NCBI GenBank assembly: GCA_039091535.1
Contig: JAWCLW010000001.1
Span: 145,073-209,072, forward strand
Direction: 5' to 3'
DNA length: 64,000 nt
Source: Candidatus Aenigmatarchaeota archaeon
Lineage (GTDB): Archaea; Aenigmatarchaeota; Aenigmatarchaeia; GW2011-AR5
Of the stretch, positions 4,564 to 43,399 are shown one piece after another. The position numbers were made by a program, and so were the translations under genes. Under the pieces are notes generated by a model that ran no database searches, had not been told where the DNA came from, and saw nothing but the letters and a program-made list of their open reading frames with translations. Within the stretch, counting starts at the first letter, position 1, and each line of letters begins with the position of its first letter.

Positions 4564-4695
4564 GGGTCCGTAGCTCAGCCTGGTGCATGGTTGTTGAAGG
4601 ACGCATTGCAGGAAAGAGCATCGGCCTCTTATAAGTCTTTCAAAAGAAGGTTTGAAGAAAGCCGGGTGTCGCGGGTTCGAATCCCGTCGGACCCA
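4564..4695 (+). tRNA. tRNA-Lys(CUU) with two introns (D-loop and canonical 37/38)
   Basis: Acceptor GGGTCCG/CGGACCC and D-stem GCTC..GAGC. Anticodon stem TCGGC/GCCGG with loop CT-CTT-A. T-arm GCGGG-TTCGAAT-CCCGT. The cloverleaf needs removal of a ~28-nt insert in the D-loop (~4585..4612) and a 28-nt insert after position 37 (4632..4659). No CCA is encoded. Confidence 0.8.
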
Positions 4696-4727
4696 TTATT
4701 AACGTTCGTTAATATATATGACAGATT

Positions 4728-5156
4728 TTAAATTTTACAGATATCACACCCTGACTTGCATTCATCCTTATACACATTACAGCAATTTTCTAATTCAACA
4801 CCTACATTTTTATGACCATTGCATATTTCGCACATACCTGCACATTTTATCTCATCTAACTCCAATTTCTTACATTCTTGACATAATGAATATAGGCATG
4901 AAAATTTATCATGATCTTGACCAAACAAAAATTTACAAGCATCTAGGAATTTATCAAACTCTGTATCATATGTAACAGACCAGTCACATTTCCTTTCTTT
5001 ATATTTCTGGCATTCGGTATAAAATATCCTGTTTGCTTCACTCTTAGTCATCTGTTGTGTTGTTTGAAACATAAAAAAATAGATTAGTGCACTCAAGACT
5101 AATGCTGCAACTATCAAGATTACAATCATAGACAATGATAATGAAATGCCCTTCAT
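4728..5156 (-). CDS. class III signal peptide (type IV pilin-like) protein with Cys-rich C-terminal domain
   Basis: The ATG at 5156 gives MKGISLSLSMIVILIVAALVLSALIYFF.. (K-G followed by ~22 hydrophobic residues). The C-terminal ~110 aa carry 14 Cys. The track's extension to 5360 is Arg-rich and overlaps the upstream gene. Confidence 0.7.
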   Translation of the reverse strand: MKGISLSLSMIVILIVAALVLSALIYFFMFQTTQQMTKSEANRIFYTECQKYKERKCDWSVTYDTEFDKFLDACKFLFGQDHDKFSCLYSLCQECKKLELDEIKCAGMCEICNGHKNVGVELENCCNVYKDECKSGCDICKI

Positions 5157-5164
5157 ATTAAAAC

Positions 5165-8100
5165 CTATATCTCTTCTTTTCCATATCTCCATTCTTCTAT
5201 TTTTTCTTTTATTACTTCTCTTTTCATAAATAAAACTGCGACAATAATTATAATTATTATAATCAAAATAATCATTCCGAAATCGAAGCCTTCTTCTGTT
5301 GATTTTGGAATGATTGTTACACCTTCTTCTGTAGGACAGCCTTCTGGCACGATCTTCCATCCAAAAGAAGGAACATCACATGGTGTTTTAAAAGATGTGC
5401 ATGTTCCAGTTAGATTGTTTCTTGCCCATGTGGTCTTAATCTGATGGCAGTTTGAAACAAGTAAATATTTTTCCTCTTCTCTAACTTCATTTAAATATTT
5501 GGATTTTGAGAAGAATTTATACTCACCCTCCTTATTTATACCTACTTTATAAGATATTGTTACATTCTTACCACTTTCTAAATCAAGTTTCCAAGAATAT
5601 GCACTATAGTCTTTTTCTAATGAAACAGTTGATGGTCCTGTTGATATAACAGCAGATGTATTGCCGTAAACAGTTCTATTTATAACTGTCAAATTCTTTT
5701 CAACGTGTTCTGTCAATGTAAAATCTGATAATGTTATATATGGAATGATATGTAATTTAACATCTATCCAACCTGTTCTTGTTGTATCTTTCATCTCACG
5801 TATTACATCAAATAAATTACCTATTGTAGGGCCAGCACCACAGTATATCTCAGTAGAGTTATAACATATTAACTTATTTTCTGGATTGTGGACATATGCT
5901 TCTATTTTTTTCATTCCTGGTGTGCCCAATTGAATAGTATGTTTGAATTCTTTTGTTCTCATCATTTTACTTTCTTCATCCTCTATTTTTCCGTGTGCAT
6001 GATCTCCGCCATTCCATATAACACGCATGGTTGCATCATATCTATTTATTCTTGGATTGAATGAACAATTTTTTGATATTATATCTATATAACATTGTGG
6101 TATGGTTACATTTGGTTTTGTTGCTGGCATAACATCTATCCATGTTATTTTATCTGTTCCAATCTGAGAGCATCTTGTCTTGTCTACATAACATTTTACC
6201 TCGCGGCTCTGATTTCCACATTGTGTATTTGTTTTAAGTCCAACAGCACAATTTGAAAAGACTGCTGTGTTACCATACCAATAAGAGTAATTATTCCATA
6301 CACATTCGTTTGTACCTATTTTTAATTTTATACAATCAACACGTGGTGTAGATACTGTACACATTACATCTATATAACCTTTTTCCTCTGGACATGAATT
6401 ACTTACAGAAACATCAAGAATCTCTACACTTACATTCGTAATATATTTTGGCTGGACTTCACAATAACAATCACTCCATTCGCAATTTTCATTACATTGT
6501 TGTACACATGTGCATTTTCCATCAATTGTTACTATTGTCTTATTTTTTGTCTCACCATCAGAACATAATGCACCACATTTCCCTTTTGAACATACATATT
6601 TGTATTCATCAAAACTGCAGTCACATGTTGGTGTACAGAATCCATATTTATCACGGTATGCATATTTCTTTCCGTCGCACATCCATTCTTGTTGTATGCA
6701 ATTTCTGTTATTGTTTGTGTTTGGCAGTTCACACTTTTCATTTTGATCGACAATATTATCACCACATCCTGAACAACTGACAGTTATATTCTTTTCTTTT
6801 GGCAATACTGGTATACAATAATCTGTTTGAATAACATATCCTGTTAAATTAAATAAACCAAATCCACGTTTTGGACAAGAAAAGTATGATGCATCACCAT
6901 CTTGAGAAATAAATGAGCAATCTGTATTTCCTATTTTGCATTTTGAGCATGTTAGATTTTTGTTAATTCTTACAGAGCATTTAATGCTATTTGATTCGCA
7001 CTGCCCTGAAACATCAACAACATAAACATCTTTTGAATATACATTAATCTGATAGAAGTCTGTTTCGTCATGTATTTCTGTTGAGCAATCAGATTCTAAA
7101 GAGCCATAAACTCTGCACATGATTTTCCAATTGCCATCAGTTGTTGCATTCGATGATAGAGTAAATGTCTTTGAAAATCCAACAGGCATTTCCATACATC
7201 TTTCTTTAACAGTTGTTTTTTGTCCGCTAGGATCTACAAAATCACATTCAGGATATCCATAATAATTTGTATTTCCTATATTCTTTACAAAAATATTTGC
7301 CCTTATGTTATTTCCGCGTTCAATAGCACTTGGTATATTAACAGATTCTATTTTTAATAAACCAGCAGAGCCACGACAATACTTATTATACAATGATTCT
7401 ATACGTGTTCTTAATTCGTCTGTTTTTTGTCTTGCTATTGTAGTATTAGATTTTGCAGGCGATGCTATGACCGCATCGAGATAGGAGATGTGGTTTGTTA
7501 TATTTCTAATTATTATATTCAAAATATCATAACATGGCATGAGTCTTGTGCGTTCTGTTGCATTTTTATTCATTACTTCTTTAAGCGTTGATTGTGCCTT
7601 TTCATAATTTACCTTTGCATTTGTAAAATTATTTCTAATTTGTATTATTTCAGGCAAATTAACATAAGGACATGAAAAACTATAATTTGATGTACTTCTT
7701 ACATTGTATTCATTTTTTGCATAAAGATAATATGCACCTTTATGGTCAACACATCTCATAAGACATAGTGATTTATCATCACCACCACAAAGGCATGGTT
7801 TTCCATATCCACAATTGTTCTTATTAAAGTATGCTTCACAATTTTGAATTGTCGCATTTCTTGAACACACAATAAATTTTGTAAACATGAAATCCAGGTT
7901 TGCAGAAAATTCCACACCATCATCGACCTCTTTTTCGCAGCGGCCATCGCACAAGAAATATTGTTCTGATAAACAATCTTTTTCACAATTTTCATCTACC
8001 TCGCAAATACCATTTCCACATAAATTTATTTTATATTCAGCATAAGCCAAAGAAGATAATTTATTTGCTGTTGCATTTACAATTATACTATAAGATGATT

Positions 8101-9055
8101 CATCTGCTGTTATTGGTGATGTTATAAATAATTTTGCCTCGGCTGATTCATCTGGCTTTAATCTAAATGAATTTTGATCAAACTCTGCTTCCCAATTCTT
8201 AGGTACAACTGCTGTAAGTGTTATTGTGCTTGGATCAAAATCAGGAGGGTCATTGTTTATAACTTTTACAGTATACATTAACATTTGACCAGGAGAGCCA
8301 TCTAGAGTTTTTGGATTTATTTCAACAGAAGGTGGTCCTCTTGATGCAATAACATATTCTGCACTAATCTTATCAAAAATATTAAGTTCTTGTGAAAATG
8401 CTACAAATGTTATAGTATAAGATCCATCAGACTCTGTTAAATTTGAGGTTACTGTGAATGTAACATCTTTCTTAGAATTTGCTGACATCTGCAAATCTTT
8501 TTGTAAATTGTATGTCCATCCTTTTGGAACTTCTAAACCAAGTTTTAATGTAATTGATTTTGGATGCTTATTTTCTAGAGTAACTTTATAGTTTACTGTT
8601 TTCCCAGCAATTGTTGTTTGTGTTTTTGGTGTTATATCTGTTATAAAGTTTTTCTTTGTGAATACATTGAATTTTAATATCACATGTGGCTCATTTATCT
8701 CTAATTGCATTGCTGAACAATCTGGTGTGCATTTTTTACATTCGGCAGAATTTCCAAGAGATTCACATGTATTTTCGCAATATGCTATTCCAGCAGGACA
8801 CGATGCAGTTGTTGTTCCACATGATATACAATTAGAATATTCTGTATTGCAATTTCCAAATATATCACACTCTGTTTTTGTATCACATATCTGATTTCCT
8901 TGACATCCACGTCCTGTGAATGTCAATTGTGCATACACAAAAGGAATTATTAATACAGACACAAGTATAATTAAAAAAGATATAAAAATAATATTTTTTC
9001 TAATTAATTTGTTAAAATTGCATCTTTTATATTTCATATCAATCACATTCACCAA
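5165..9055 (-). CDS. giant secreted Cys-rich surface protein with C-terminal membrane anchor
   Basis: 1296 aa with an N-terminal signal (..LIILVSVLIIPFVYA-QL) and about 70 Cys by hand count. It has CGNGICEVDENCEKDC and CGDNIVDQNEKCELPN motifs and CARDB/NEW3-like beta-sandwich stretches (TVNYKVTLENKHPKSITLKLGLEVPKGW..). N-x-S/T sequons are abundant. The C-terminal TM is MIILIIIIIIIVAVLF followed by a charged tail. The start could instead be the ATG at 9037. Confidence 0.85.
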   Translation of the reverse strand: MVNVIDMKYKRCNFNKLIRKNIIFISFLIILVSVLIIPFVYAQLTFTGRGCQGNQICDTKTECDIFGNCNTEYSNCISCGTTTASCPAGIAYCENTCESLGNSAECKKCTPDCSAMQLEINEPHVILKFNVFTKKNFITDITPKTQTTIAGKTVNYKVTLENKHPKSITLKLGLEVPKGWTYNLQKDLQMSANSKKDVTFTVTSNLTESDGSYTITFVAFSQELNIFDKISAEYVIASRGPPSVEINPKTLDGSPGQMLMYTVKVINNDPPDFDPSTITLTAVVPKNWEAEFDQNSFRLKPDESAEAKLFITSPITADESSYSIIVNATANKLSSLAYAEYKINLCGNGICEVDENCEKDCLSEQYFLCDGRCEKEVDDGVEFSANLDFMFTKFIVCSRNATIQNCEAYFNKNNCGYGKPCLCGGDDKSLCLMRCVDHKGAYYLYAKNEYNVRSTSNYSFSCPYVNLPEIIQIRNNFTNAKVNYEKAQSTLKEVMNKNATERTRLMPCYDILNIIIRNITNHISYLDAVIASPAKSNTTIARQKTDELRTRIESLYNKYCRGSAGLLKIESVNIPSAIERGNNIRANIFVKNIGNTNYYGYPECDFVDPSGQKTTVKERCMEMPVGFSKTFTLSSNATTDGNWKIMCRVYGSLESDCSTEIHDETDFYQINVYSKDVYVVDVSGQCESNSIKCSVRINKNLTCSKCKIGNTDCSFISQDGDASYFSCPKRGFGLFNLTGYVIQTDYCIPVLPKEKNITVSCSGCGDNIVDQNEKCELPNTNNNRNCIQQEWMCDGKKYAYRDKYGFCTPTCDCSFDEYKYVCSKGKCGALCSDGETKNKTIVTIDGKCTCVQQCNENCEWSDCYCEVQPKYITNVSVEILDVSVSNSCPEEKGYIDVMCTVSTPRVDCIKLKIGTNECVWNNYSYWYGNTAVFSNCAVGLKTNTQCGNQSREVKCYVDKTRCSQIGTDKITWIDVMPATKPNVTIPQCYIDIISKNCSFNPRINRYDATMRVIWNGGDHAHGKIEDEESKMMRTKEFKHTIQLGTPGMKKIEAYVHNPENKLICYNSTEIYCGAGPTIGNLFDVIREMKDTTRTGWIDVKLHIIPYITLSDFTLTEHVEKNLTVINRTVYGNTSAVISTGPSTVSLEKDYSAYSWKLDLESGKNVTISYKVGINKEGEYKFFSKSKYLNEVREEEKYLLVSNCHQIKTTWARNNLTGTCTSFKTPCDVPSFGWKIVPEGCPTEEGVTIIPKSTEEGFDFGMIILIIIIIIIVAVLFMKREVIKEKIEEWRYGKEEI

Positions 9056-11427
9056 TCTTTTGGAACAGTAACTATTGCAGTAAGTTCTCCATCCATTTGA
9101 GGTGCGGCAAATGAATATGAAAATTGGCCTTTGCTATCTGTTGTCGTATAATCCTCTTTTATAACATTTCCATTAGATGCTCTTATCTCTATCTTTACTT
9201 TTTTATTTTTCCATGGACCACATGAACCTTGACTGCACTCATATGTTATATTATGAGATTCAATAGGCACACCACCTTCATGACATAAAGGTGCATAACC
9301 CTTTTCTGAATCATAATACTTTCCACAAACAGAATAACATGTGCGCTGATATGGTGAGCCTGTCTGATAGCTAGCTGCTGCAGACCTTATCATATATAAT
9401 AATCTTTCATACTCCAGTGTTGACAATTTTTTATCTTGAATATTATCAGAATTTTGCTTATTTTGTTGTTCTTTATTTTCCGCATAATCTGTCACAGGCC
9501 ATCCACTAGCAACAACGTGGCCTGTAGAAGCTAAAATTTCTCTGGCTGTTTCACTTGTTATAAATATATATTGTGACCATTGAAGTGCTTCTTTTACGGT
9601 TTCAATCCCTATTCCTAGAGATGGACCAAAAATAGGAAGTAAGACTGAGACTGCAAGTCCTAAATCTCCAATGATATTACTCCATTTTATAGCTGTGCCC
9701 TCACCTTCTGCTGCCACTCTTTCAGGCAAATCAGCAGGGCATTGCTTATACGACCATTTTATTTTATAGCGACTATCTTTAATATCGCATGTGAGCTCCT
9801 GAAATTTAAGACATTTATATTGATAGCCATTACATTCATTGCATAGTTTTGTAACAGAGCCAGTTATTGTAATAGAATTACCTGCCATAACAAGATTTTG
9901 TGATATTCTCGCATTTATTGTCCCATTACTTGGTTTTCCTGTGTAGTCATTTGGTTTTCCTTTTGGTGGATTTTTCAATTCATTTGGAGGTTTCCAATGA
10001 ACTGTAAATGTGGTGCCTGGTATTGTTGCTGATTGATAATTTAGATTTGCTGTGTTTGTTTTTGTCTGTTGAAATGATGCTATATTTATCCTTGTACACC
10101 AGCATCTCTCGCCAGGTTCGCAATCAACATCAGGGTATACCCCAATTGGTTGTGGGGTTTCAATGTATTCTTGTGTACTCTGTCGAGTATATATGCCTCC
10201 ATATATGAACATTGGATTTTCTTTTGAACATTTACCAGTTGGTATGGATAATTGAGTTGTTTGATATGTTCGACCCGACCATACATTACCATAGTAATAT
10301 GCTGTACACAATTCTTCGCATGATGGTATTGGTGGGCATTGCTCGTCTGATCCATATGCTATATGAAATGGATTAGGACAATCGCTCTCTGTTCCACACT
10401 GGCCTCTTTGATATAATGTAGATAGTCCAGAAAGTGGGTCTGGTGCACAATAATACAAACCTTTGCTATGGCATTCCTCACATTTTGAGACTTTTGTTTC
10501 CCTTGGTTTATATTCTGATGATGGAGTTGCTTCAACATCCTTGCATTTCAAACTATACTCCATGCAATCCTTTTTACACTGATCAATAGATGTATAACCA
10601 CCATAATAATTTTCTTCCTTACAATTTTCTGTACAAATAAAATCATAGCCTTCTTTGTTATAGTAACAGAGAAAGATATTATAGCAAAACTCATCGAAAA
10701 GATTAGGATAGTTATCTGGGCACCCCCCTGTTGATCGTTCTATGCATTTACCATTTTTTATATCTGTTTTAGATACGCTACACCATATAAATTTAGTAGG
10801 ATCCTTTATGCATTCCTCACATGTTTTTATATCAGAATATTTTGTCTCCCCTGCTTCTATTGTTTCTCCTGCATATATCAGATATGCTTTACCATTACTT
10901 TTGCAACCTTGTGCTGACCAGCCCTTTACCTTGGTATTATCGCCAATAATTTTTTTATTACCTTGACTATCAAAAAATTCACCACTTACCCATTCAATAT
11001 GATACCAATCGAAATCTCCAACAGTTTGTGGTCCATCTAAAACTCTACCTATTGAGTCAATAGATACAGTTGCGATTATTTTTTTATCAGTTCCCTGTCC
11101 TTCTCTTACATTCAAATTTACGTTTGCTTTGACCATATCATTTTTTTTAAATTGCCTAAATGTATAACTCCCGCCTTGAGAACATGTGGACGACTCTGTT
11201 TCTTGTCCATCACCTGTTATCATGCCTGTTATGGCTTCAGAGCCTGCAAAAGTTATGTCTTCATTTTTTGTATTATGAGAAAAATCACAAATTTCATAAT
11301 CTTCAAGAGCTTTTCCTATTCCGATACCAAAATTCCATAATAAAACATGCGGTATGCTTAGAGAAATAATTAAGGCTACTGAGAAAAATGTGATGAATTT
11401 CTTTATGTTCGATTTTTCGATTTTCAT
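9049..11427 (-). CDS. secreted Cys-rich protein with SH3b-like module
   Basis: 792 aa with an N-terminal signal. An SH3b-like segment VNLNVREGQGTDKKIIATVSIDSIGRVLDGPQTVGDFDWYHIEW lies at ~10978..11145. The middle is Cys-rich and the C-terminus looks like an Ig/CarboxypepD_reg-like beta domain (KVKIEIRASNGNVIKEDYTTTDSKGQFSYSF). Its stop overlaps the next gene's start by 7 nt. Confidence 0.8.
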   Translation of the reverse strand: MKIEKSNIKKFITFFSVALIISLSIPHVLLWNFGIGIGKALEDYEICDFSHNTKNEDITFAGSEAITGMITGDGQETESSTCSQGGSYTFRQFKKNDMVKANVNLNVREGQGTDKKIIATVSIDSIGRVLDGPQTVGDFDWYHIEWVSGEFFDSQGNKKIIGDNTKVKGWSAQGCKSNGKAYLIYAGETIEAGETKYSDIKTCEECIKDPTKFIWCSVSKTDIKNGKCIERSTGGCPDNYPNLFDEFCYNIFLCYYNKEGYDFICTENCKEENYYGGYTSIDQCKKDCMEYSLKCKDVEATPSSEYKPRETKVSKCEECHSKGLYYCAPDPLSGLSTLYQRGQCGTESDCPNPFHIAYGSDEQCPPIPSCEELCTAYYYGNVWSGRTYQTTQLSIPTGKCSKENPMFIYGGIYTRQSTQEYIETPQPIGVYPDVDCEPGERCWCTRINIASFQQTKTNTANLNYQSATIPGTTFTVHWKPPNELKNPPKGKPNDYTGKPSNGTINARISQNLVMAGNSITITGSVTKLCNECNGYQYKCLKFQELTCDIKDSRYKIKWSYKQCPADLPERVAAEGEGTAIKWSNIIGDLGLAVSVLLPIFGPSLGIGIETVKEALQWSQYIFITSETAREILASTGHVVASGWPVTDYAENKEQQNKQNSDNIQDKKLSTLEYERLLYMIRSAAASYQTGSPYQRTCYSVCGKYYDSEKGYAPLCHEGGVPIESHNITYECSQGSCGPWKNKKVKIEIRASNGNVIKEDYTTTDSKGQFSYSFAAPQMDGELTAIVTVPKDW

Positions 11428-11556
11428 GTGATTGCCTCTTTGTCCCTTAATTTATTATTTATTTTTTTATTTATTAATTTGATGGTTTTATAACTATTCT
11501 ATTTTTTAGAAATTAAAGTAAAAAGATAATTGAAAAAACAATTAACAAAAACTATA

Positions 11557-12213
11557 TCAAACCTGTTCACTTTCTATAATTCCTTGCTTTATTTTCATCT
11601 CATGTATTATTTTAGAAAGAGATTCAATGTTATGTGTCAAGGCTGGTAAAAATTGTTTAAACGCCTTTTCTAAACCACCTACTCTCGCTTCTAAATCTTC
11701 TATCCGCTCATTTATTTCAGATACTCTAATCTCTAAATCCTTTGTTACAGGCTCTTTTTTGGCCAGTTCTATTTTTTGTTCAAATTGTGTTATCTCTGCA
11801 CGCATCCTTTCGAGATTTTCTTCCATTTTTTTCATATTCTCATCAAACTTGTGCCATTTATCTTCTATAACACCTTCTATAAGGTCTTCTAACACAATCT
11901 CTGGTTGTTCTTCTGGTAATTCTTCAAGTTGTGGCAATTGTGGTTGTTGAAATATATTTTCCTGTTGTTCTGGTTCTTCATAAAAATTTTCAAATGTTGG
12001 AACAGTTGGTTCAACCTTCCTCATAATAGGCTCTTCGCTGATATCTGATTTTACTGCTTGAAGCATCGCCTTCTCTATTTCATCATAGGAATAGCCTTTG
12101 GATTTCAACTTTTTTATTATATCTTTATCGCTCATACCAGATTGCGTCATTTTTTTCACTTCATCAATAGGAATTCCATGTTCCTCTTTCTTCTTTTTTC
12201 TAAAGAACATCAA
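11557..12213 (-). CDS. coiled-coil protein with small N-terminal helical domain
   Basis: 218 aa: N-terminal ..GMSDKDIIKKLKSKGYSYDEIEKAM.., an acidic linker, then a long heptad-like C-terminus. No family recognised. Confidence 0.6.
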   Translation of the reverse strand: MMFFRKKKKEEHGIPIDEVKKMTQSGMSDKDIIKKLKSKGYSYDEIEKAMLQAVKSDISEEPIMRKVEPTVPTFENFYEEPEQQENIFQQPQLPQLEELPEEQPEIVLEDLIEGVIEDKWHKFDENMKKMEENLERMRAEITQFEQKIELAKKEPVTKDLEIRVSEINERIEDLEARVGGLEKAFKQFLPALTHNIESLSKIIHEMKIKQGIIESEQV

Positions 12214-12271
12214 ATCGCCTCAAACCAGATTATATAATTATCTGTTATTCTCACTTTTTATATATTGTGGT

Positions 12272-12655
12272 TTATTGTTGTTCTCTTTTGAATTTTAATT
12301 CTTCTTCTAATTCTTCTTTTGTAACAAACTCTTGTTTTAGTGGGCTTAACAAATCAAACATCCTTTCTATTTCTTTCAAATCCTTTTTCCTTGCAAAATC
12401 GTTTATCTGCCTATTTATTTTATCCAACACATTTTTGATTTTTATTAATTCATCATTTATATTTTTTATACTAACATCAACTTCTGCAAATTTTGCATTT
12501 GCTTTTTTTGTTCTTTCGAGGCTTATTTCTTCTATATTGGATATTTTGTTCTCTAATGCATCAAGTCTTTGTTCAATGCTTCTTAGCCTTCTTGTATCCT
12601 CATTGCTTCTTCTTACAAGCTCTTGGACAATTACACCATACTGACTTTCTGGCAT
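12272..12655 (-). CDS. coiled-coil protein
   Basis: 127 aa, charged and heptad-rich (RLDALENKISNIEEISLERTKK..). Chosen over the low-complexity antisense ORF 12267..12644. Confidence 0.6.
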   Translation of the reverse strand: MPESQYGVIVQELVRRSNEDTRRLRSIEQRLDALENKISNIEEISLERTKKANAKFAEVDVSIKNINDELIKIKNVLDKINRQINDFARKKDLKEIERMFDLLSPLKQEFVTKEELEEELKFKREQQ

Positions 12656-12904: not shown

Positions 12905-13825
12905 ATGAAATTACTTACAATAAAAATTTTAATATTGTTTATATTTATTATTCCTATCATAAGTTTTGCATACTCTGATACATCAATAAATGAAGTTTTG
13001 AAAAGATCGTCTTCTTTATCAACTTCCACCATTCTTAATATAAAAAATAAAATAGAAAATGAATTTGGTAAAAATAGTGTTTTAAGATGGGATGCTTATT
13101 TAAATCCAAATAATAAAATAAAATGTTTTAAAGTAGCGAATTTCTACTTCACGCCAGATGAAGAACACATAAAGAGAATTATAGGTTATTTATACGACGC
13201 TTCAGAGTCTGCATCTAAAAACAATTATGGAATAAGCATATCTCCAGAGTTTGTTTATACAGTAGGAATGGGGGAAGGTCTTGTTCTATATTTAAAAGAT
13301 CTTTTTTGTGGTTGGATATATGAGAATGATCCTGTAGACGGTTTTTATTATTTAGGATTGGATCATTTTTCTGATGAGGTTGAAATTTTAAAAAGTAATA
13401 AATTTTTAAGAAGAGATTTCAACGAAGGCGATGAATATTTCCCTGTTAAAAATAAAAATGAACTTGACCAAATTGTTAGAAGTGCTGAGTTTAAAAATAT
13501 AAAATATGGACTAGAGGCCTTAGCTGCTAGAATAGCTTGGACAAAATATGTATTTTTGAATGATTTGAAAAAATTAAATATCCCAGAAAGCAGTTTAACA
13601 GAAGATCAAATAAATTTCTGGGTTTATTATTATTACAATATTGGTAATAATAAGGGGTATTCATCTCTGACAAATCGTATTAAAAATGGTATTCTCGACG
13701 ATTCAAATTTTATAAGAGCTACTGGAAAAGAAGTTAAAAATGGATGTAATGGTAGATATAATGCAATAATAAGGACAGCTACCACGAAATTTATAAAGAA
13801 TTTAAATATATTTAATCCAGCATAA
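12905..13825 (+). CDS. secreted hypothetical protein (weak lysozyme/transglycosylase-like hints only)
   Basis: 306 aa with an N-terminal signal (LILFIFIIPIISFA-YS). GMGEGL .. YLGLDHF .. YYYYNIGNNKGY vaguely recall a GH23-like E..GL..YNxG order, but I cannot support a call. Confidence 0.5.
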   Translation: MKLLTIKILILFIFIIPIISFAYSDTSINEVLKRSSSLSTSTILNIKNKIENEFGKNSVLRWDAYLNPNNKIKCFKVANFYFTPDEEHIKRIIGYLYDASESASKNNYGISISPEFVYTVGMGEGLVLYLKDLFCGWIYENDPVDGFYYLGLDHFSDEVEILKSNKFLRRDFNEGDEYFPVKNKNELDQIVRSAEFKNIKYGLEALAARIAWTKYVFLNDLKKLNIPESSLTEDQINFWVYYYYNIGNNKGYSSLTNRIKNGILDDSNFIRATGKEVKNGCNGRYNAIIRTATTKFIKNLNIFNPA

Positions 13826-13884: not shown

Positions 13885-14799
13885 ATGAATAAACTAACAA
13901 GACGTGAATTCATTAAAAATTCTGCTTCATATTTGGCAAGTTTAATTATTGGAATAAATGATGATAACAAAAAGCCTAACGTAGTTAATTACAAACCTGT
14001 GTATAAACATAATCATAAATACAAAAGAGGTGGAAAGTTTTCACACTCAAAGCCAACATGGTGCGAACTTAGAAAAGGTTTATATTTCACGCGTCTAATA
14101 GTTTATAGGGATAATGAACCTGTTGATTCTATGGGACTTGTTAAAGCAGATCCAAATTATAACAAATTTAGAGTATTTCACGATCGTGAGAATCCAAAAA
14201 CAATAGAAAAATGGCAAGAATATACAAATGCCGATGTTATATTTAATAGCAGTTATTATCAGGATACATTAGATCCAGTAGGTCTTATAATTACAAATGG
14301 TAAAATGAAAGGTCCAAAAGTTAATAAAGCAATGAAAGGGATGTTTGTAGCAGAACCTGTAGATGATAGGAAACCAAAAGCAACTATCATTGATTTCTCA
14401 GAAGAACTTTTTGATTATAAAAATCCTAAATGGATGGAGGGTGTACAATCATTTCCAATGCTTCTAGATAAAAATGGAAATATAGGTGTTAAAAATAGTA
14501 GATGGTATGCAAATAGAACCGTATTATGCACAGATAGAGATGGAAATATAATAGTTTTGACAACAGAAGGGGGATACTTTTCACTATATGATATGGGCTT
14601 GTTTTTACGTGAGAGTGAATTGAACATTAAAAATGCTCTTAACATGGATGGTGGATATGAAGCAGAGATGATGGTAAAAACAGATAAATTGATATATTTA
14701 ACATATGGACAATGGGAAACACAAGGTAAAATAGACATTTCAATACCATGGATTCACATACGTATACCAGCTGTAATAGGTATATTTCCCAGAAAATAA
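13885..14799 (+). CDS. Tat-signal phosphodiester glycosidase (NAGPA/DUF2233)-like protein
   Basis: The twin-arginine leader is MNKLTRREFIKNSASYLASLI. The C-terminal ..ANRTVLCTDRDGNIIVLTTEGGYFSLYDMGLFLRESELNIKNALNMDGGYEAEM resembles the RT..D.dG...G.sl.el..fl..l....AlNLDGG signature of that family. Confidence 0.6.
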   Translation: MNKLTRREFIKNSASYLASLIIGINDDNKKPNVVNYKPVYKHNHKYKRGGKFSHSKPTWCELRKGLYFTRLIVYRDNEPVDSMGLVKADPNYNKFRVFHDRENPKTIEKWQEYTNADVIFNSSYYQDTLDPVGLIITNGKMKGPKVNKAMKGMFVAEPVDDRKPKATIIDFSEELFDYKNPKWMEGVQSFPMLLDKNGNIGVKNSRWYANRTVLCTDRDGNIIVLTTEGGYFSLYDMGLFLRESELNIKNALNMDGGYEAEMMVKTDKLIYLTYGQWETQGKIDISIPWIHIRIPAVIGIFPRK

Positions 14800-15720: not shown

Positions 15721-17976
15721 ATGGTCTGTGATTATGAATACAATGAAGAGACACAAAAGATACGTGTTGATTGTATAGGATGCATCTATGGTTCTAGCAT
15801 AGAAGATTTTGGAACATGCATGGCAAAAACAATAGACAAACTTATGGAACTAAGAAAGGTTGTTCGTATCGTTCTTGCTGGCACAAGAGAATATGAATAC
15901 GATTTTTCGGAATCAAGATTGCTCTTAGAAATTGCAATTGCAATCGACAAAATAATTAAGGAAAAAATAATTTCATTAAAAAATGTTGTTATCAAGGGCT
16001 GCGAAGAGGATGCGCCAAGCAGGTATGCATTTTTGCAAAATTTGTTAAATGGAATGAGATACGACCCAATAGATGCTTATAAAAAGCTTATACGAGAGAT
16101 AAGACACACAAAAATAAAAGCAGAGCGTGAAAAAGATATTGTAAGAGAGTGTTATGAACATTATCTTGTGAATGCATTACTACCTATACAAAGAATTTTA
16201 GAAAATTGTAAATTAATTCAGATAGCCAAACCAAACCTAGAAGATCATAAAAACCGCTATTTATATAGGAAAATATTTCATCCAACTGTAAGACCTAACT
16301 TCATATATACAAGATATATATCGTTGCCACCACCAAACGCAGAATTACTTGACAGATACAAAATAGGTGACACAGACGTAGAGATTTACAATATTCCTGG
16401 AAAAGTGAGAAAATTATATCATATAATTCCACCTGAATTCAAATTGAACGAAGAAGAATATACATTGCTCGATACGGCAAGGCGATATCTTGGCAGACAT
16501 GAACCATTGGAGACTGAACTAGCTGAGCCAGAAAGGATAAGAGAGAATCTATTTAGAATAGGTTTGGATATGCTTCGTGAACTTGCAACAAATAGCAACA
16601 TACAATTATCAGAAGATAAGTTAAATAAATTAGCAGGTATACTTACAAGATACACAGCAGGCCTAGGTATTTTAGATTTGATTTTACAAGATGAAAATAT
16701 ACAAGATGTTGCGGTAAATTCTCCTCTTGGTCGAGCACCAATCTATATTTTTCATGGTATCTTTCAAGAGTGTGAAACAAACATAGTTCCAAGTAAAGAG
16801 GATGGAGAATCTTGGGCAACAAGATTTAGATTGCAGAGTGGTCGTCCATTGGACGAAGCAAACCCTGTATTGGATACAGAATTATCAGTACCTGGGGGAC
16901 GCGCACGTGTTGCAGCGATAACAAGAACCTTATCACCTGATGGACTTGGTTTTGCATTTCGACGTCATAGAGATAAACCATGGACATTCCCCTTGTTCAT
17001 AAATAATAAGATGATAGATTCGTTTTCTGCTGGTTTGGTCTGGTTTCTTATAGATGGATCAAGAACATTATTGATAGCAGGGACAAGGTCATCAGGAAAG
17101 TCGTCTTTCCTTGGAGCATGTATGGTTCAGATAATGCCAAAATTGAGAATAATAACAACAGAGGATACTCTTGAACTCCCGGTAGAACAATTAAGAGAAT
17201 TAGGCTATAATATTGAAAGATTAAAATCACGAAGTGTTATAACACATATAGAAACAGAACTACCAGCAGAAGAGGCACTAAGAACAGCATTACGTCTTGG
17301 CGATTCATGTCTTATTGTAGGTGAGGTAAGATCAAAAGAAGCTTTGGCACTATATGAGGCAATGAGAATTGGAGCGCTTGCAAATGTTGTTGCAGGTACA
17401 ATTCACGGAGACTCTGCATATGGTGTTTTTGATAGAGTTGTTAATGATTTAGGAGTTCCTCTAACAAGCTTTAAAGCAACAGATATTATTTTAATATGCA
17501 ATATGTTAAAATCGCCTGATGGTCTTCGTTCTTTTCGTCGTGTTGTTGAACTTACAGAAGTTAGAAAGCATTGGAAAAATGATCCACTAGATGAAGGTGG
17601 CTTTGTTAATTTATTAGAGTATTCTGCAAAGGACGATATATTAAAACCAACAAAAACATTGCTTACTGGTGAATCTATAATATTAAATGATATTGCTTCT
17701 CGTGTTCGTGAATGGAAGGGGAATTGGGATGCTGTTTGGGGTAATATAAAGCTTCGTGAAAAAATATTGCAAACTCTTGTTGACTACGCAAATGCAACAA
17801 AGAATTTTGATATAATAGAAGCACATAATGTTGTAGAATCAAATTCACAATTTCATATTATAAGCAATGAAGTAAAAGAAGAATATGGTGAATTAGATAA
17901 TAGATTAATCTATGAAAGATGGCAAGAATGGTTAAAGAAAAAAATAAAAAATACTATTACTATGAAAAATTCTTAA
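15721..17976 (+). CDS. type II/IV secretion-family ATPase (FlaI/PilB/VirB11-like) of an archaeal type IV filament system
   Basis: 751 aa. Walker A is GTRSSGKS (17080..17103). It also has the Asp-box-like RIITTEDTLEL, the Walker B-like GDSCLIVGEVRSKEA and the His-box-like GTIHGDSA. The N-terminal domain is long and family-variable. Confidence 0.85.
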   Translation: MVCDYEYNEETQKIRVDCIGCIYGSSIEDFGTCMAKTIDKLMELRKVVRIVLAGTREYEYDFSESRLLLEIAIAIDKIIKEKIISLKNVVIKGCEEDAPSRYAFLQNLLNGMRYDPIDAYKKLIREIRHTKIKAEREKDIVRECYEHYLVNALLPIQRILENCKLIQIAKPNLEDHKNRYLYRKIFHPTVRPNFIYTRYISLPPPNAELLDRYKIGDTDVEIYNIPGKVRKLYHIIPPEFKLNEEEYTLLDTARRYLGRHEPLETELAEPERIRENLFRIGLDMLRELATNSNIQLSEDKLNKLAGILTRYTAGLGILDLILQDENIQDVAVNSPLGRAPIYIFHGIFQECETNIVPSKEDGESWATRFRLQSGRPLDEANPVLDTELSVPGGRARVAAITRTLSPDGLGFAFRRHRDKPWTFPLFINNKMIDSFSAGLVWFLIDGSRTLLIAGTRSSGKSSFLGACMVQIMPKLRIITTEDTLELPVEQLRELGYNIERLKSRSVITHIETELPAEEALRTALRLGDSCLIVGEVRSKEALALYEAMRIGALANVVAGTIHGDSAYGVFDRVVNDLGVPLTSFKATDIILICNMLKSPDGLRSFRRVVELTEVRKHWKNDPLDEGGFVNLLEYSAKDDILKPTKTLLTGESIILNDIASRVREWKGNWDAVWGNIKLREKILQTLVDYANATKNFDIIEAHNVVESNSQFHIISNEVKEEYGELDNRLIYERWQEWLKKKIKNTITMKNS

Positions 17977-18011: not shown

Positions 18012-18461
18012 TTAGCTGCTACATGTTGGTGTTGTTGTGTGTATTGCTGATATACCAGGGCAGTATGTCAAAATAGTTGTCTTTGAATAATCAGAACATC
18101 CAGGTCCAACCTGTACACCTGTGACCTGAATTGTTCCTATTGCACCTCTATTCAGTGTGAATGTTGTTGTATTTTGGAAATTGCCACCTGTCTTATTTGT
18201 TAACATAGCACTTGATATTGTAATCTCTCTGACCCCAGTATTTTTAACAATAACATTAGCTATGCCAGTATTATTGTTTATGTATACAGAATCTATTTCT
18301 ATCGCAGCTCCTGAACATTCCACAATCTCAGTTGATTTATTTCCTACACCACTTGTTGTTGATGTTGTAAAACTTGTTCCCCATGTTATTATAAGTACCG
18401 CAGCTGTTACAGTAAATGCTATAAGCAATACTGCTGCTATTAGAGGCGATATTCCTTTCAT
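18012..18461 (-). CDS. archaeal type IV pilin (class III signal peptide, Pilin_N/DUF361-like)
   Basis: MKG-ISPLIAAVLLIAFTVTAAVLIITWG.. is the canonical archaeal pilin/flagellin N-terminus. The body is Thr/Asn-rich with sequons, and GC is locally higher. The gene is divergent from the platform gene. Confidence 0.85.
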   Translation of the reverse strand: MKGISPLIAAVLLIAFTVTAAVLIITWGTSFTTSTTSGVGNKSTEIVECSGAAIEIDSVYINNNTGIANVIVKNTGVREITISSAMLTNKTGGNFQNTTTFTLNRGAIGTIQVTGVQVGPGCSDYSKTTILTYCPGISAIHTTTPTCSS

Positions 18462-18639: not shown

Positions 18640-20643
18640 ATGGGATTTATAAGGAAAAGACCAGAAAAGAGTAAAGAAAAAGAAAAGTTGATTAAAGCAA
18701 GAGAAGCAAAAATAAAAGAAATAATTTCACGTGAATACAAATTGTATAAAGAAGAGGAAAGATTAGCTTCTTTACCAAGAACATTCTATGAAAAAGCCTG
18801 CAAATTTAGTGAAAAATCTATAAAAATAAAACCAGATGAAAAGACAGGGAAAAAAATAGAAGAGGCTATAAAATTTTCTCATTTGAATATTACACCAGAA
18901 GGTGTTGCATCACTTACTATATTGTTTGCATTGGTGACAAGCGTACCTACACTCATTCTTATAATACTAAATATATTTGGTCTGCCTGGAATATCTGTTG
19001 GCTATGGTATGATCATTATGTTACTTTCTATGTTTTTTACATACTATCTTTATACATATCCTTTTCATTTAAAGAAGAGATACGAAATAGATGTAGGGTC
19101 AGAAATTGTGACAATGATATTGTATATGGCAATGTACATGAGAAATGTGCCAAATCTTGAGGGTGCACTACGTTTTGCATCAGAAAATTTGACTGGACCA
19201 TTAGGATACGAGCTGAAAAAGCTTATGTGGGATGTTGAAGTTGGAAATTATGTTAATGTTCAAGATGCATTAATGGATTATACAAGAAAATGGTCTCAAA
19301 ACAAAGAACTTATTGAATCAATAGAATTATTGATAACATCTTTGAAACAAGTTGGCGAAAGAAGATTATCATTGCTAGATGAAGCAGTTAACATAATACT
19401 TGAAGGCAACAGAGAACAAGCAAAACACTTTAACCAAAAATTAAAGATGCCCGTTATGGTTGTGCATGCGCTTGGTATAATATTACCAGTTATGGGTCTT
19501 GTTTTATTTCCAGTTGTTGCTATCTTTCTGCGAGTTGAGGCAACAATTTTATTTGTTGGTTATGATATTCTTCTTCCATTTATACTTTATTTTGTGATAA
19601 CAAACATACTTGAGATAAGACCATCAACATTCAGTAAAATAGATATAACAGAGAATCCGGATGTTCCACCATCAGGAAAATTCAAATTTGGAAAAACCTT
19701 TGTAAGAGCTTGGCCATTTGGACTTATTGCTGGGACAATTGTTTTATCACTTGGAATTATTGTATCTTTTAATGATGAGGAGGGCATAATATCCGCAATA
19801 CTGATTTTATTTGGCATAGCATTTGGATTTGCTTTATATTATATCTTACTTTCTAATCAGAGACTAAAAGTGAGAGAAAAGACAAGAAAGATTGAAGGGG
19901 AATTTGCAGAGGCCTTATTCCAATTGGGAAATCAAATAGGTGGTGGGACACCGATAGAATTATCTATTGAACACTCAATGGAAAGGATAAAAAATCTAGA
20001 AATAAGAAATCTATTCTCGCGTGCATTAAATAATATGAAATCTCTTGGATTTACATTTTCGCAAGCATTCTTTGATAAAGAATATGGAGCAATAAGATAT
20101 TATCCATCAAAAATGATAAAATCTATAATGCATACAGTTGTTGAATCTACAAAAAAAGGTGTAAGCACCGCTGCTGTTGCTATGCTATCTGTTTCGCGTT
20201 ATTTGAAAGGTCTTCATCAAACACAAGAGGATATAAAAGAACAATTAAATGACACTCTAAACTCCTTAAAATTTCAACTGTTATTTTTGTCTCCATTGAT
20301 ATCAGGTGTTATTGTAACACTTGCAATAATAATAATGCGTATCCTAAAACAATTATCGGAACAATCAACTGCGCTATCAACAGGTTCATTACCATTTATA
20401 TCACAGTTTGGCGAAGCTAATATAACACCTTTTCAATTTTTGTTTGTTGTGGGAATTTATCTTATAGAAACATGTTTCATTTTATCAATGTTTATAAATA
20501 CAATAGAGAATGGTGAAGATCCTATAGGTTGGTATAACCTTACAGGATATTCATTGATTATTGGGTTCGTTGTTTTTTCAATATGTTTATTTGCTACACT
20601 TACTGTGTTTGGCCCATTGATAAGTTCAACACTGACTAGTTGA
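18640..20643 (+). CDS. FlaJ/TadC/PilC-like polytopic platform protein
   Basis: 667 aa with a charged cytoplasmic N-terminus and two blocks of TM helices. These are separated by soluble segments resembling T2SSF domains (..LEGALRFASENLTGPLGYELKKLMWDVEVGNYVNVQDALMDY..). It sits next to the ATPase and pilin. Confidence 0.65.
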   Translation: MGFIRKRPEKSKEKEKLIKAREAKIKEIISREYKLYKEEERLASLPRTFYEKACKFSEKSIKIKPDEKTGKKIEEAIKFSHLNITPEGVASLTILFALVTSVPTLILIILNIFGLPGISVGYGMIIMLLSMFFTYYLYTYPFHLKKRYEIDVGSEIVTMILYMAMYMRNVPNLEGALRFASENLTGPLGYELKKLMWDVEVGNYVNVQDALMDYTRKWSQNKELIESIELLITSLKQVGERRLSLLDEAVNIILEGNREQAKHFNQKLKMPVMVVHALGIILPVMGLVLFPVVAIFLRVEATILFVGYDILLPFILYFVITNILEIRPSTFSKIDITENPDVPPSGKFKFGKTFVRAWPFGLIAGTIVLSLGIIVSFNDEEGIISAILILFGIAFGFALYYILLSNQRLKVREKTRKIEGEFAEALFQLGNQIGGGTPIELSIEHSMERIKNLEIRNLFSRALNNMKSLGFTFSQAFFDKEYGAIRYYPSKMIKSIMHTVVESTKKGVSTAAVAMLSVSRYLKGLHQTQEDIKEQLNDTLNSLKFQLLFLSPLISGVIVTLAIIIMRILKQLSEQSTALSTGSLPFISQFGEANITPFQFLFVVGIYLIETCFILSMFINTIENGEDPIGWYNLTGYSLIIGFVVFSICLFATLTVFGPLISSTLTS

Positions 20644-21178: not shown

Positions 21179-22051
21179 ATGGAGCTTGGAGCCATCGTTA
21201 CTGGATTAATAGCATTGGTTGTGCTTGGTTTGATGTTAATGCTACCAAAAGGTATAACAACAATTGTTCAAGAAAATATAACAAAATTGACGCCAGACTA
21301 CATAAAACTTGAAAATTATGATATAAGATTAAATTATCAACCATTATCTGATAATAAATTTTTATATTCAATATTTTTATCTCCAATAATCTCTTATTCG
21401 GGTAAGATTGAACATGATACATCCATTATTTCTTTTATTGAATTCAAGAGTAAAAGTCAAAAGATGATTGTAGTGGAAGGACTTAAATCAGATGATAACC
21501 CTGTAATTCCAAAAGCTACAAAAAAATTTGATGGCACATTAAAAGCAGAAATACAAAGTGAGATCCCACCTATATTTGATTGGGTGTATCAGAAAAACCT
21601 CAACAAACCACTTATTGAAGGTCAATCTATTATAATAGATAAAAAATTTATTGTGACCTTGTTTGATCTGGATGAAACCCTTTTTGATAAATTAAATCCA
21701 TTAAGAAGTAGATGTGCAGTAAAATTTCTAATTGAATGTAAAAATGAAGTAAAAACATTGAGTTTAAGGGATGATGACAATGAACAAGAAAAAGATGTAG
21801 AACTATGTGGTGCAAACATAAAAATAAATTTAAAAGAAACAAATGACTGCAAATCTGCAGATGTAGATATTATTTATACAAAGCTTGGTGAAATACCTGA
21901 TTTTGATATAAAAGAAAAATTATGGTTGAGTTTATGGAGAAATACAGATTGTGTCAGATTATGGCATACATATGAAGATTTATTTGAACATTGTTTTGGA
22001 GATCTTCTAGGAAGATATAAATTATATCATAATTTGTTAATTCCAAAATAG
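21179..22051 (+). CDS. N-terminal-helix (pilin-like?) secreted protein
   Basis: 290 aa starting MELGAIVTGLIALVVLGLMLML, followed by a soluble domain with a few Cys. Confidence 0.6.
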   Translation: MELGAIVTGLIALVVLGLMLMLPKGITTIVQENITKLTPDYIKLENYDIRLNYQPLSDNKFLYSIFLSPIISYSGKIEHDTSIISFIEFKSKSQKMIVVEGLKSDDNPVIPKATKKFDGTLKAEIQSEIPPIFDWVYQKNLNKPLIEGQSIIIDKKFIVTLFDLDETLFDKLNPLRSRCAVKFLIECKNEVKTLSLRDDDNEQEKDVELCGANIKINLKETNDCKSADVDIIYTKLGEIPDFDIKEKLWLSLWRNTDCVRLWHTYEDLFEHCFGDLLGRYKLYHNLLIPK

Positions 22052-22299
22052 TAGATCTGTATATGTTTTATATATAACCAAAAAGGACAAATAGTATCAT
22101 CTTCAGACTCGCAACCAATTCATGTATTATTTTATCTAATTAATTCCCCGTAAATCATCGTATTTTATTTCTAGTAATTCGACCCAAACTTCAAAATTTG
22201 TTAAATTTTTCTATCTTCTTTCTATTTATAATTTTATTGCTCTTACTATTTCTTACAGCACTAAAAATATTTAATTAAGCCTCATCAATAATAGTAAAT

Positions 22300-23361: not shown

Positions 23362-23362
23362 A

Positions 23363-23494
23363 ATGATATTTGATATACCTGTTAAATATATTTTGTTGAT
23401 TTTAATTTTATTACTTATTGTTATTCTCCTTGGACTTTGGCGTAGTAGTGCATTTCAATCATTAGATTTAATAAAAAGTATATTAGGAGTGTGA
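23363..23494 (+). CDS. small single-TM protein
   Basis: Hand-translated 43-aa ORF: MIFDIPVKYILLILILLLIVILLGLWRSSAFQSLDLIKSILGV. It starts 1 nt after the previous stop. Confidence 0.45.
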   Translation: MIFDIPVKYILLILILLLIVILLGLWRSSAFQSLDLIKSILGV

Positions 23495-23498
23495 TAAA

Positions 23499-23621
23499 AT
23501 GAGAATAGAATATGTGGTTGTTGGATTTGTGCTTGCTGCAATAATTTTATTTGTTGCAATAAGTATGCTCAAGAATGTAATCCCTGGAGTTGAATCTATA
23601 TTCAATCTCTTTGGTGGTTAG
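23499..23621 (+). CDS. small single-TM protein
   Basis: Hand-translated 40-aa ORF: MRIEYVVVGFVLAAIILFVAISMLKNVIPGVESIFNLFGG. Confidence 0.45.
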   Translation: MRIEYVVVGFVLAAIILFVAISMLKNVIPGVESIFNLFGG

Positions 23622-25278: not shown

Positions 25279-25347
25279 ATTATCCATTATTTCTTAATAG
25301 AAAATCTTATTTATATCATGAAAATAATATTTTGTTAGTGAATAATT

Positions 25348-37882: not shown

Positions 37883-37902
37883 AAAATTGAGATGATGAAA
37901 TT

Positions 37903-38247: not shown

Positions 38248-38252
38248 TAATA

Positions 38253-38573: not shown

Positions 38574-38585
38574 TTGGTGTTTAAA

Positions 38586-40426: not shown

Positions 40427-40482
40427 TCTTATTGTTATTGGTTCTAAAAACTTTTTAATTAATTAGGATAAATATTTACACT

Positions 40483-41019: not shown

Positions 41020-41084
41020 TTTATCAGGAATATATAAATTTTCAAAGAATTTAAGATTTTAATTAAATAATTGGAAAGATAATT

Positions 41085-41669: not shown

Positions 41670-41728
41670 TCGTGGTGTAATCTAACCTTTCTTTTTTAAT
41701 TTTGGCATTTTGTGTTGATTTAATTAAA

Positions 41729-43394: not shown

Positions 43395-43399
43395 TAAAT

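Follow-up and report, generated by a model that had tools for sequence, protein, structure and literature searches.

An A-B-C gene cassette of Aenigmatarchaeota as a candidate disulfide-rich surface module directed at bacterial peptidoglycan

Giant extracellular proteins with SLT domains have been proposed to bind bacterial cell walls in Woesearchaeota and Pacearchaeota (Castelle et al., 2021, PMC8204110; Vigneron et al., 2022, PMC9723730), and archaeal peptidoglycan hydrolases kill bacteria (Strock et al., 2025, PMC12352652), with M23 homologs previously noted in Nanoarchaeia (PMC12352652). Divergent type IV pilus (T4P) loci are also known in DPANN archaea (Makarova et al., 2016, 2019, PMC6393860). 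Whether bacteria are hosts or prey of DPANN archaea was explicitly left as an open question by Castelle et al. (2021), and lineage-specific extracellular protein families of Aenigmarchaeota were reported in the same study with no predicted function (PMC8204110). Here we describe a locus on a stretch of 64,000 nt of the Candidatus Aenigmatarchaeota contig JAWCLW010000001.1 (the window; G+C content ~30%; all coordinates below are window positions), in which three adjacent genes, termed A (792 aa), B (1296 aa) and C (142 aa), encode cysteine-rich proteins. We propose, with a probability of roughly one half, that A-B-C is a lineage-specific, disulfide-rich surface module directed at bacterial peptidoglycan, and it has so far been found only in Aenigmatarchaeota. 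Giant murein-directed DPANN proteins are already known from Woesearchaeota and Pacearchaeota, and A-B-C is a variant of that concept. No published description was found of the cassette itself, of the insertion of SH3b, M23 and SLT domains into one scaffold, of a coupling to small cysteine-rich pilin-like proteins or of an occurrence in Aenigmatarchaeota.

A three-gene cassette conserved across related loci

Related loci were gathered from contigs carrying homologs of B and by scanning species genomes and metagenomes with an alignment of C. This gave 27 loci in total (L001-L027, several of them redundant; L009 is the GW2011_AR5 locus), all of Aenigmatarchaeota type, with organism labels that read Aenigmatarchaeota or unclassified archaea throughout, GW2011_AR5 included. 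The scan with the C alignment accounted for eight loci among 185,579 species genomes, all of them from Aenigmatarchaeota or unclassified archaea, and no relatives of the cassette were present in 2.9 million viral contigs scanned. The B and A proteins of the window are identical to the NCBI entries QXD48_00980 and QXD48_00985, respectively. A, B and C are arranged identically, all on one strand and with short gaps, in the window and at L001-L009, L014 and L019-L022, and this order is kept in all related loci whose contigs reach far enough. Orthologs of A lie upstream of B at every locus with sufficient contig reach, and the adjacency of B and C is maintained on shorter contigs too. The initial annotation of this DNA had suggested a cysteine-rich, adhesin-like surface assembly genetically tied to a pilin-like subunit, and the gene order kept in related loci bears this out. 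The flanks of the cassette vary. A CCA-adding enzyme is encoded there in the window and L001, and L002, L004 and L005 have tRNA synthetases and ribosomal proteins instead. Further archaeal neighbours in the window include a beta-CASP nuclease and a CDP-archaeol synthase.

The same annotation had regarded five consecutive minus-strand genes as one operon, with two coiled-coil genes, cc127 and cc218, ahead of A. Our open reading frame (ORF) calls agree with the five genes (Table 1), which are separated by 58 nt between cc127 and cc218 and by 129 nt between cc218 and A. The unit does not extend that far, however. The gene content of the 27 loci was checked by tblastn with the window proteins over +/-10 kb around the cassette, and no homologs of cc218 or cc127 were detected. 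In addition, the spacer between cc218 and A (11428-11556) contains a T-run and then a TATA-like box, TTATAAAA, ~60 nt upstream of the A start, an arrangement that judged by sequence would be compatible with a separate promoter for A. As only A, B and C travel together in the related loci, the conserved unit is three genes and not five, and cc218 and cc127 are neighbours rather than components of the module. Both coiled-coil proteins are devoid of a signal peptide, a transmembrane (TM) segment and cysteine, and domain searches returned generic coiled-coil matches only. They were also considered as FlaC-like or archaellum parts, an idea that was rejected since the matches in question were sub-threshold coiled-coil noise.

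Within the cassette, the reported 7-nt overlap of A and B holds if B begins at its TTG codon, whereas the NCBI annotation of B (1290 aa) uses the ATG at 9037, which leaves a gap of 11 nt. The 8-nt gap between B and C is exact (B stop TAG at 5167-5165, C start ATG at 5156). All three proteins are rich in cysteine. B has 73 cysteines (5.6%), where about 70 had been counted by hand, A has 37 (4.7%) and C has 14 (9.9%), the same number as counted before, and the average pooled over the 38 window ORFs having <2.5% cysteine is 0.84%.

Peptidoglycan-directed domains in protein A and in neighbouring genes

Word-indexed homolog searches, with A alone or with an alignment of six A sequences, returned two proteins, and an exhaustive profile search was needed for more; this defined a family of 76 representatives (P-numbers, e.g., P0082) among 1.84e9 proteins. 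Family alignments indicate a layout of an N-terminal signal or anchor, a Cys-rich core, a hydrophobic or Met-rich linker and a C-terminal immunoglobulin (Ig)-like domain, with large variable regions between. SH3b domains are the peptidoglycan-targeting modules of lysostaphin-type enzymes, and an SH3b-like module had been noted in window A at ~10978..11145. Pfam alone does not recover it, as SH3_3 scores 12.2 bits (E 0.21) on the window segment alone, below the cut-off of 27, and gives no match at E<=1 with full-length A. At the profile level, however, the module stands, with an actual span of 10903..11151. A profile of three A-family sequences matched only SH3b or SH3 structures in the PDB, the best being 2kt8 (E 1.8e-5) and 2kyb (E 2.8e-4), then 2krs and 2kq8, and hhalign aligned the SH3b segments with the four SH3_3 repeats of P0093 (Pfam E 3.5e-42) at a probability of 98.2% and E 6e-14. 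With these PDB profile matches and the hhalign result in hand, we take the SH3b call to be correct; aa 93-175 of window A align to the SH3 segments of A-family orthologs.

Other members of the family carry Peptidase_M23 or SLT domains, in one case SLT together with SH3_3 (Table 1), and the M23 and SLT catalytic motifs are intact in direct sequence reading. The idea of cell-wall targeting is strengthened by these orthologs. Enzymes directed at peptidoglycan are also encoded near the cassette, both in the window and at L004, L007 and L009, where YkuD, SLT, Amidase_2 and NAGPA genes occur in different combinations, at L007 and L009 along with DUF1615 (Table 1).

Beyond these inserts, the A proteins have several recurrent features. 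A motif of the form P[HNQ]xx[LV][WF] is present in the N-terminal region of 15/39 full-length family members, where it appears directly after the N-terminal hydrophobic stretch as [SA][IV]PH[VN]SLW[GN]FGxG...AxA. As its conservation is too strong for the c-region of an ordinary signal peptide, this motif may act as a signal dedicated to sorting or docking. The C-terminal domain gives weak Pfam Ig-like matches only (MG2, Big_13, Big_6 and SdrD_B). A profile search with A yielded no PDB relative by sequence, and the AlphaFold2 (AF2) model of A, built from a two-sequence alignment, had a mean predicted local distance difference test score (pLDDT) of 29.9 and was left out of the fold search. Short paralogs of A (322-361 aa) were seen between two tRNA-synthetase genes upstream of the cassette at L002:1763-2848 and L005:1010-1978; of core 1 they have only the distal part, set between the N-terminal signal and a C-terminal Ig-like domain. 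Linkers rich in Met, Ser and Gly (e.g., NPAMLMMMQSS) follow core 1 in L002:6466-9876 (aa ~440-520) and L005:4522-9891 (aa ~560-640), and window A has a short hydrophobic stretch, aa 589-608, at the same position. The variable region of A (window 10350-10900, minus strand) and of its orthologs also contains repeated C-x2-C-x5-9-[WYF]C-x8-14-G-x-C modules, the spacing of which we take to recall PSI domains, with no Pfam match.

A second recurrent cassette was observed beside A-B-C on the opposite strand at L004:16749-22914, L007:11606-15922 and L009:11863-17706 (minus strand in all three) and at L010. It consists of one or two giant Cys-rich proteins (TPM + YkuD, SLT or DUF1615) and then a pilin-like protein of 120-146 aa, of the same type as that encoded at 31210 in the window. 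In GW2011_AR5 the NAGPA gene stands directly after C (L009:10427-11287). The NAGPA gene of the window adjoins a gene for a secreted 306-aa protein (12905-13825), for which no family or PDB relative was found. At the far end of the window, the frame of the SLT-bearing gene (61953-64000) is open to the window end and the gene extends beyond it; counted from the first ATG, the 607 aa within the window contain 36 Cys.

Predicted stalk, small pilin-like partner and filament locus

Protein B has a Sec-type N-terminus (..PFVYA/Q, the slash marking the predicted cleavage site here and below), in line with the cleavable-looking signal noted earlier, and the C-terminal TM anchor with its charged tail was likewise recovered as a strongly hydrophobic segment (Table 1). 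The initial annotation had further mentioned CARDB/NEW3-like stretches and many N-x-S/T sequons. NEW3 is well supported (PF10633, NPCBM_assoc; 39.8 bits against a cut-off of 24.4, with a precomputed match in 15/15 homologs), whereas CARDB is not (E 0.64); the Pfam matches to B are NPCBM_assoc (E 5e-10), FixG_C (E 1.6e-5) and Ig_VWA7 (E 2e-5). There are indeed 24 sequons, but the enrichment over the 15.3 +/- 3.6 expected is modest (P about 0.02). The 15 homologs of B are 42-59% identical and all lie on Aenigmatarchaeota-type contigs, and some reach ~1690 aa via duplication of a Cys-rich region (aa ~860-1080). No sequence relative of B was found in the PDB by profile search.

The AF2 model of B aa 40-1239, based on 15 sequences, has a mean pLDDT of 68.7 and predicts strings of beta-sandwiches. 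Its first half comprises a small Cys-rich beta domain at the N-terminus, two NEW3 sandwiches, a Cys-rich beta module and a three-helix bundle, with helices at model residues 428-458, 460-492 and 496-520; several further beta-sandwiches come after the bundle and then a poorly modelled Cys-rich stretch. Foldseek returned only generic multi-Ig/MG-domain arrays for this model, with template modelling (TM) scores of about 0.1 (hydin, alpha-2-macroglobulin/complement and mastigoneme). As these are generic multi-sandwich arrays and nothing more specific, B would be best described, on the basis of its model, as a long stalk that is held by a C-terminal anchor and has type-I membrane topology. Two other identities were considered for B and rejected. 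Homology to alpha-2-macroglobulin was dismissed given the Foldseek score and the absence of a thioester motif on sequence reading. As for an S-layer protein, PF05124 (S_layer_C) has no match in B and instead matches the product of 47950-50556 (E 1e-27), a canonical S-layer protein encoded on the minus strand (868 aa, 3 Cys) in a patch with a G+C of 0.38 vs about 0.29. The region 36782-46631 encodes glycosyltransferases (GT2 x4, GT4), two CDP-alcohol phosphatidyltransferases and the CDP-archaeol synthase, a cluster from which the glycans of the sequon-rich B might come.

Gene C encodes a protein with the N-terminus MKG/ISLSLSMIVILIVAALVLSALIYFF (MKG/ISLS..), a hydrophobic helix within aa 1-33 and then a domain of ~100 aa. 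A FlaFind-type motif scan selected three window proteins only, namely C and the products of 18461..18012 and 30225-30554, all starting MKGIS. Six aligned C orthologs are 40-61% identical with 13 invariant Cys, and three CxxC motifs are conserved in C. No PDB relative of C emerged from a profile search. Many C orthologs are leaderless, starting with MELP, MQLP, MELS or MASLP at the residue aligned with the predicted +1 of MKG/I (L003:14067, L004:15090, L006:4091, L011:3396, L021:10001 and L027:2588). For L003 and L004, the upstream sequence was examined and contained no in-frame start codon. These leaderless starts at +1 suggest that the functional mature N-terminus lies at that position. Over its first ~57 residues, C shows homology to a second small family (hhalign 97.9%), which includes the product of window 31210-31521 at the end of the T4P-like locus and has CxxxCxC instead of CxxC; other members of this family follow giants with TPM + YkuD, SLT or DUF1615 in L004, L007, L009 and L010. 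From their sequences, the N-terminal halves of the 30225-30554 and 31210-31521 proteins appear to be of the same superfamily as C.

A tRNA-like gene of 135 nt (4564-4698, plus strand) is convergent with gene C. It has canonical acceptor and T arms and a long insertion, probably an intron, and was missed by ARAGORN and by Rfam at the gathering score, neither of which reported any RNA gene. A relaxed scan gave a spurious sub-threshold transfer-messenger RNA match at this position, which is a model artefact.

The T4P-like locus of the window spans 15.7-31.5 kb and starts 3 kb past the last of the five genes, with its ATPase and platform genes 10.5 kb from gene C (Table 1). It was previously suggested that the surface proteins work together with this filament locus. 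Conserved linkage does not support this, as none of the other loci has a T2SSE ATPase or T2SSF platform homolog less than 10 kb from the cassette. The link is nonetheless plausible in this genome, in which C shares MKGIS with the bona fide pilin and the 30225-30554 protein, and in which the filament locus holds a pilin-like M23 protein. The latter (27849-29696) has the HxxxD (FHKGID) and HxH (HLH) motifs as well as NCBIfam peptidoglycan hydrolase matches. Several further Cys-rich proteins with pilin-like N-termini are encoded alongside it at 21179-27859.

Table 1. Features of the A-B-C cassette, of related A proteins and of neighbouring genes (window positions unless a locus or protein is named)
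Feature	Location	Strand	Description
cc127	12272..12655	minus	ORF, 127 aa, cytoplasmic coiled-coil protein
cc218	11557..12213	minus	ORF, 218 aa, cytoplasmic coiled-coil protein, TTG start; ATG one codon on
Gene A	9049..11427	minus	ORF, 792 aa, secreted Cys-rich protein, putative head
A signal/anchor	11308..11427	minus	N-terminal, conserved motif SIPHVLLWNFGIG
A SH3b-like domain	10903..11151	minus	aa 93-175, 17-residue insertion before GW motif
A core 1	9673..10338	minus	aa ~364-585, family-specific Cys-rich module shared by all A orthologs (BLAST, alignment)
A C-terminal Ig-like domain	9052..9345	minus	aa ~695-792, most widely conserved block of the family
Gene B	5165..9055	minus	ORF, 1296 aa from TTG, predicted anchored Cys-rich multi-beta-sandwich stalk
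B signal peptide	8930..9055	minus	aa 1-42, ..IIPFVYA/Q, predicted cleavage site (hydropathy, sequence reading)
B tandem NEW3/FixG_C-type beta-sandwiches	8027..8659	minus	aa ~133-343 (Pfam, model strands)
B three-helix bundle	7379..7657	minus	aa ~467-559, invariant N-T-T sequon (AF2, alignment)
B C-terminal TM anchor	5204..5302	minus	within aa ~1252-1284, hydropathy 3.54, charged cytoplasmic tail after it
Gene C	4728..5156	minus	ORF, 142 aa, probable pilin-like protein
Peptidase_M23 in A family	L003 A; P0082		E 6.5e-15 (L003 A)
SLT in A family	L005 A (= P0022); P0034; P0077		E 3.7e-10 (L005 A)
SH3_3 in A family	L005 A; P0059		E 2e-3 (L005 A), E 6e-6 (P0059)
Neighbours in window	13885; 27849; 61953		NAGPA at 13885, M23 at 27849, SLT at 61953
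Neighbours at L004	L004		YkuD, SLT
Neighbours at L007	L007		Amidase_2+YkuD directly after C; DUF1615
Neighbours at L009	L009		NAGPA, YkuD, DUF1615, SLT
NAGPA (phosphodiester glycosidase)	13885-14799	plus	near cassette (Pfam)
T2SSE ATPase	15721-17976	plus	Pfam
Archaeal pilin	18012..18461	minus	MKG/ISPLIAAV, TIGR02537 E 1.2e-7, between ATPase and platform
T2SSF platform	18640-20643	plus	Pfam
Peptidase_M23 protein	27849-29696	plus	615 aa, pilin-like N-terminus TKG/VGTTVGTILLIVV, in T4P-like locus, M23 E 2.6e-23
Small Cys-rich pilin-like protein	30225-30554	plus	MKG/ISLAIE, 109 aa, 8 Cys
Small Cys-rich pilin-like protein	31210-31521	plus	MKMKG/LELPIS
SLT Cys-rich protein	61953-64000	minus	SLT E 2.5e-12, ES..GLMQ motifs intact

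Target of the module, alternatives and comparison with known systems

If A-B-C is directed at bacterial peptidoglycan, the module may operate as follows. B would be exported by Sec and held in the membrane by its C-terminal helix, with a glycosylated beta-sandwich rod, including the three-helix bundle and Cys-rich knots, reaching outward. A would form an exchangeable head, the conserved core and Ig-like domain of which could dock onto B and/or C, and its inserts would vary by lineage, with SH3b here and an M23 endopeptidase or an SLT lytic transglycosylase with SH3b in orthologs. The enzyme that processes the bona fide pilin of the window might also cut C after MKG, after which C would serve either as the anchor of the assembly or as its link to the T4P-like machinery 10 kb away. 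The module would then bind the bacterial cell wall and, in some lineages, cleave it locally, allowing attachment to a bacterial host or prey. The most specific form of this proposal, a pilin-coupled, disulfide-rich spike with interchangeable murein-binding (SH3b) or murein-cutting (M23, SLT) heads that serves to dock onto and breach bacteria, is a tentative and rather doubtful one.

Several observations speak against a module of this kind. A peptidoglycan-related domain is recognisable in only ~5/38 A-family members scanned, and A of the window has the binding domain only, no catalytic domain having been found in domain searches. SH3b domains can also bind ligands besides peptidoglycan. The contact between A, B and C is itself something that we infer. 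As for C, there is no TIGR02537 match at E<=0.01 and no relevant Pfam match, none of the window ORFs scanned, which were all but a few short ones, was recognised as a prepilin peptidase, and the many orthologs that have no K-G (lysine-glycine) leader could be plain signal-anchor proteins. With neither a pilin hidden Markov model (HMM) match nor a prepilin peptidase seen in the window, we infer that C is pilin-like and regard this as probable rather than settled. Finally, none of the cultivated DPANN archaea lives on a bacterium (PMC11291902), and the main genomics study of Aenigmarchaeota argued against bacterial hosts (Li et al., PMC8407114).

One alternative is that the cassette builds an envelope or adhesion structure of a generic kind, directed at an archaeal host, at a mineral surface or at the envelope of the cell itself, and that the peptidoglycan inserts are occasional horizontal add-ons unrelated to its core function. 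This would suit the majority of A-family members, in which no peptidoglycan-related domain can be recognised, as well as B and C, which have none, and it agrees with the archaeal hosts of all cultivated DPANN (PMC11291902) and with the exclusion of bacterial hosts for Aenigmarchaeota by Li et al. (PMC8407114). It is harder to square with the repeated insertion of three unrelated domain types (M23, SLT and SH3b) into one scaffold and with the YkuD, Amidase_2, SLT or NAGPA genes that flank the cassette in several genomes, such peptidoglycan enzymes being otherwise rare in archaea (PMC12352652). We consider it unlikely, while giving it serious weight. The five-gene operon, in which the coiled-coil and surface proteins would act with the nearby filament locus as one system, draws on the common strand, the short spacers, a filament locus that begins only 3 kb past the last gene and the MKGIS leader in common. 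Against this, neither coiled-coil nor T2SSE/T2SSF homologs accompany the cassette within +/-10 kb elsewhere, the T-run and TATA-like box intervene between cc218 and A, and signal peptides, TM segments and Cys are all missing from the coiled-coil proteins; we regard such an operon as improbable.

C and the related small proteins could also be membrane-anchored CxxC folding or disulfide-assembly factors for the adjacent Cys-rich giants, and not structural pilins. The three conserved CxxC motifs would fit such a role, as would the presence of a small, N-terminally anchored Cys-rich protein after each giant-protein cluster (L003, L004, L007 and L009), and a scan of all but a few short window ORFs revealed no Dsb/VKOR-type gene that might otherwise provide for disulfides. 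However, 13 invariant Cys (14 in the window) per ~100 residues resemble structural disulfides more than a redox site, C has no thioredoxin-fold match, the second small family has CxxxCxC and no CxxC, and the N-terminus of C agrees with pilin leaders; a folding role is thus very improbable. The endolysin-like domain repertoire finally brings to mind a mobile or viral lysis or entry cassette, as phage lysins also combine SH3b, M23 and SLT. Yet the proteins are giant and membrane-anchored, their genomic context is a stable housekeeping one (CCA enzyme; tRNA synthetases and ribosomal proteins), and a viral origin was ruled out by the zero relatives among the 2.9 million viral contigs, so that the chance of such a cassette is close to nil.

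On the reading that we prefer, in which A-B-C is directed at bacterial peptidoglycan, murein-directed modules have been repeatedly plugged into one lineage-specific surface scaffold that is encoded beside further murein-acting enzymes, and in this genome the scaffold adjoins a T4P-like locus holding a pilin-type M23 peptidase. Three uncharacterised, lineage-specific extracellular protein families of Aenigmarchaeota would thereby gain a plausible role. The SH3b domain and the M23 and SLT orthologs could be used as probes or baits for host cell walls. If the proposal is true, Aenigmatarchaeota would be the first DPANN lineage with a defined apparatus for archaeon-on-bacterium episymbiosis or predation, and the cassette together with the pilin-fused M23 peptidase would offer a handle for finding the hosts.

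Compared with known systems, A is most readily set beside the giant SLT proteins of Woesearchaeota and Pacearchaeota, as both are very large secreted DPANN proteins with peptidoglycan-directed domains, and for both a role in attaching to or attacking bacterial walls has been proposed. The latter family has been described as lineage-specific single proteins, whereas here the organisms are Aenigmatarchaeota and the protein has a stalk and a pilin-like partner; moreover, the insert of A is exchangeable (SH3b, M23 or SLT) in a distinct conserved scaffold, and there is no sequence relation beyond the SLT domain. The Sulfolobus bindosome (Bas system) consists of sugar-binding proteins with class III signals. 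In the bindosome and in the divergent T4P loci of DPANN archaea, non-filament class III proteins are encoded near T2SSE/T2SSF, a pattern which the M23 protein of the window and C fit. Unlike these loci, A-B-C is not syntenic with an ATPase and platform elsewhere, and many C orthologs are leaderless. Known archaeal pilins are beta-sandwich proteins, whereas C goes undetected by pilin HMMs and its 14-Cys head looks helical on sequence reading.

The PilY1/PilC tip adhesins resemble A-B-C in that a small pilin-like subunit is genetically coupled to an adhesin of very large size, and ultrasmall episymbionts that engage their hosts via pili are found among the Saccharibacteria, whose episymbiosis depends on T4P (PMC9894109, PMC11623550). 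There is, however, no homology, the archaeal machinery is different, and B has a membrane anchor of its own, for which a pilus-tip adhesin would have no need. The A family also follows the same logic of catalytic (M23/SLT) and wall-binding (SH3b) parts as lysostaphin, ALE-1, zoocin A and their archaeal homologs (PMC12352652). No pilin link was reported for the archaeal hydrolases by Strock et al. (PMC12352652), and A of the window differs from lysostaphin-type hydrolases in having the binding module only. Overall, lysostaphin-type hydrolases are small, diffusible, bacteriocin-like enzymes, whereas the modules of the A family are set in Cys-rich scaffolds of 700-1800 aa that are accompanied by an anchored stalk.

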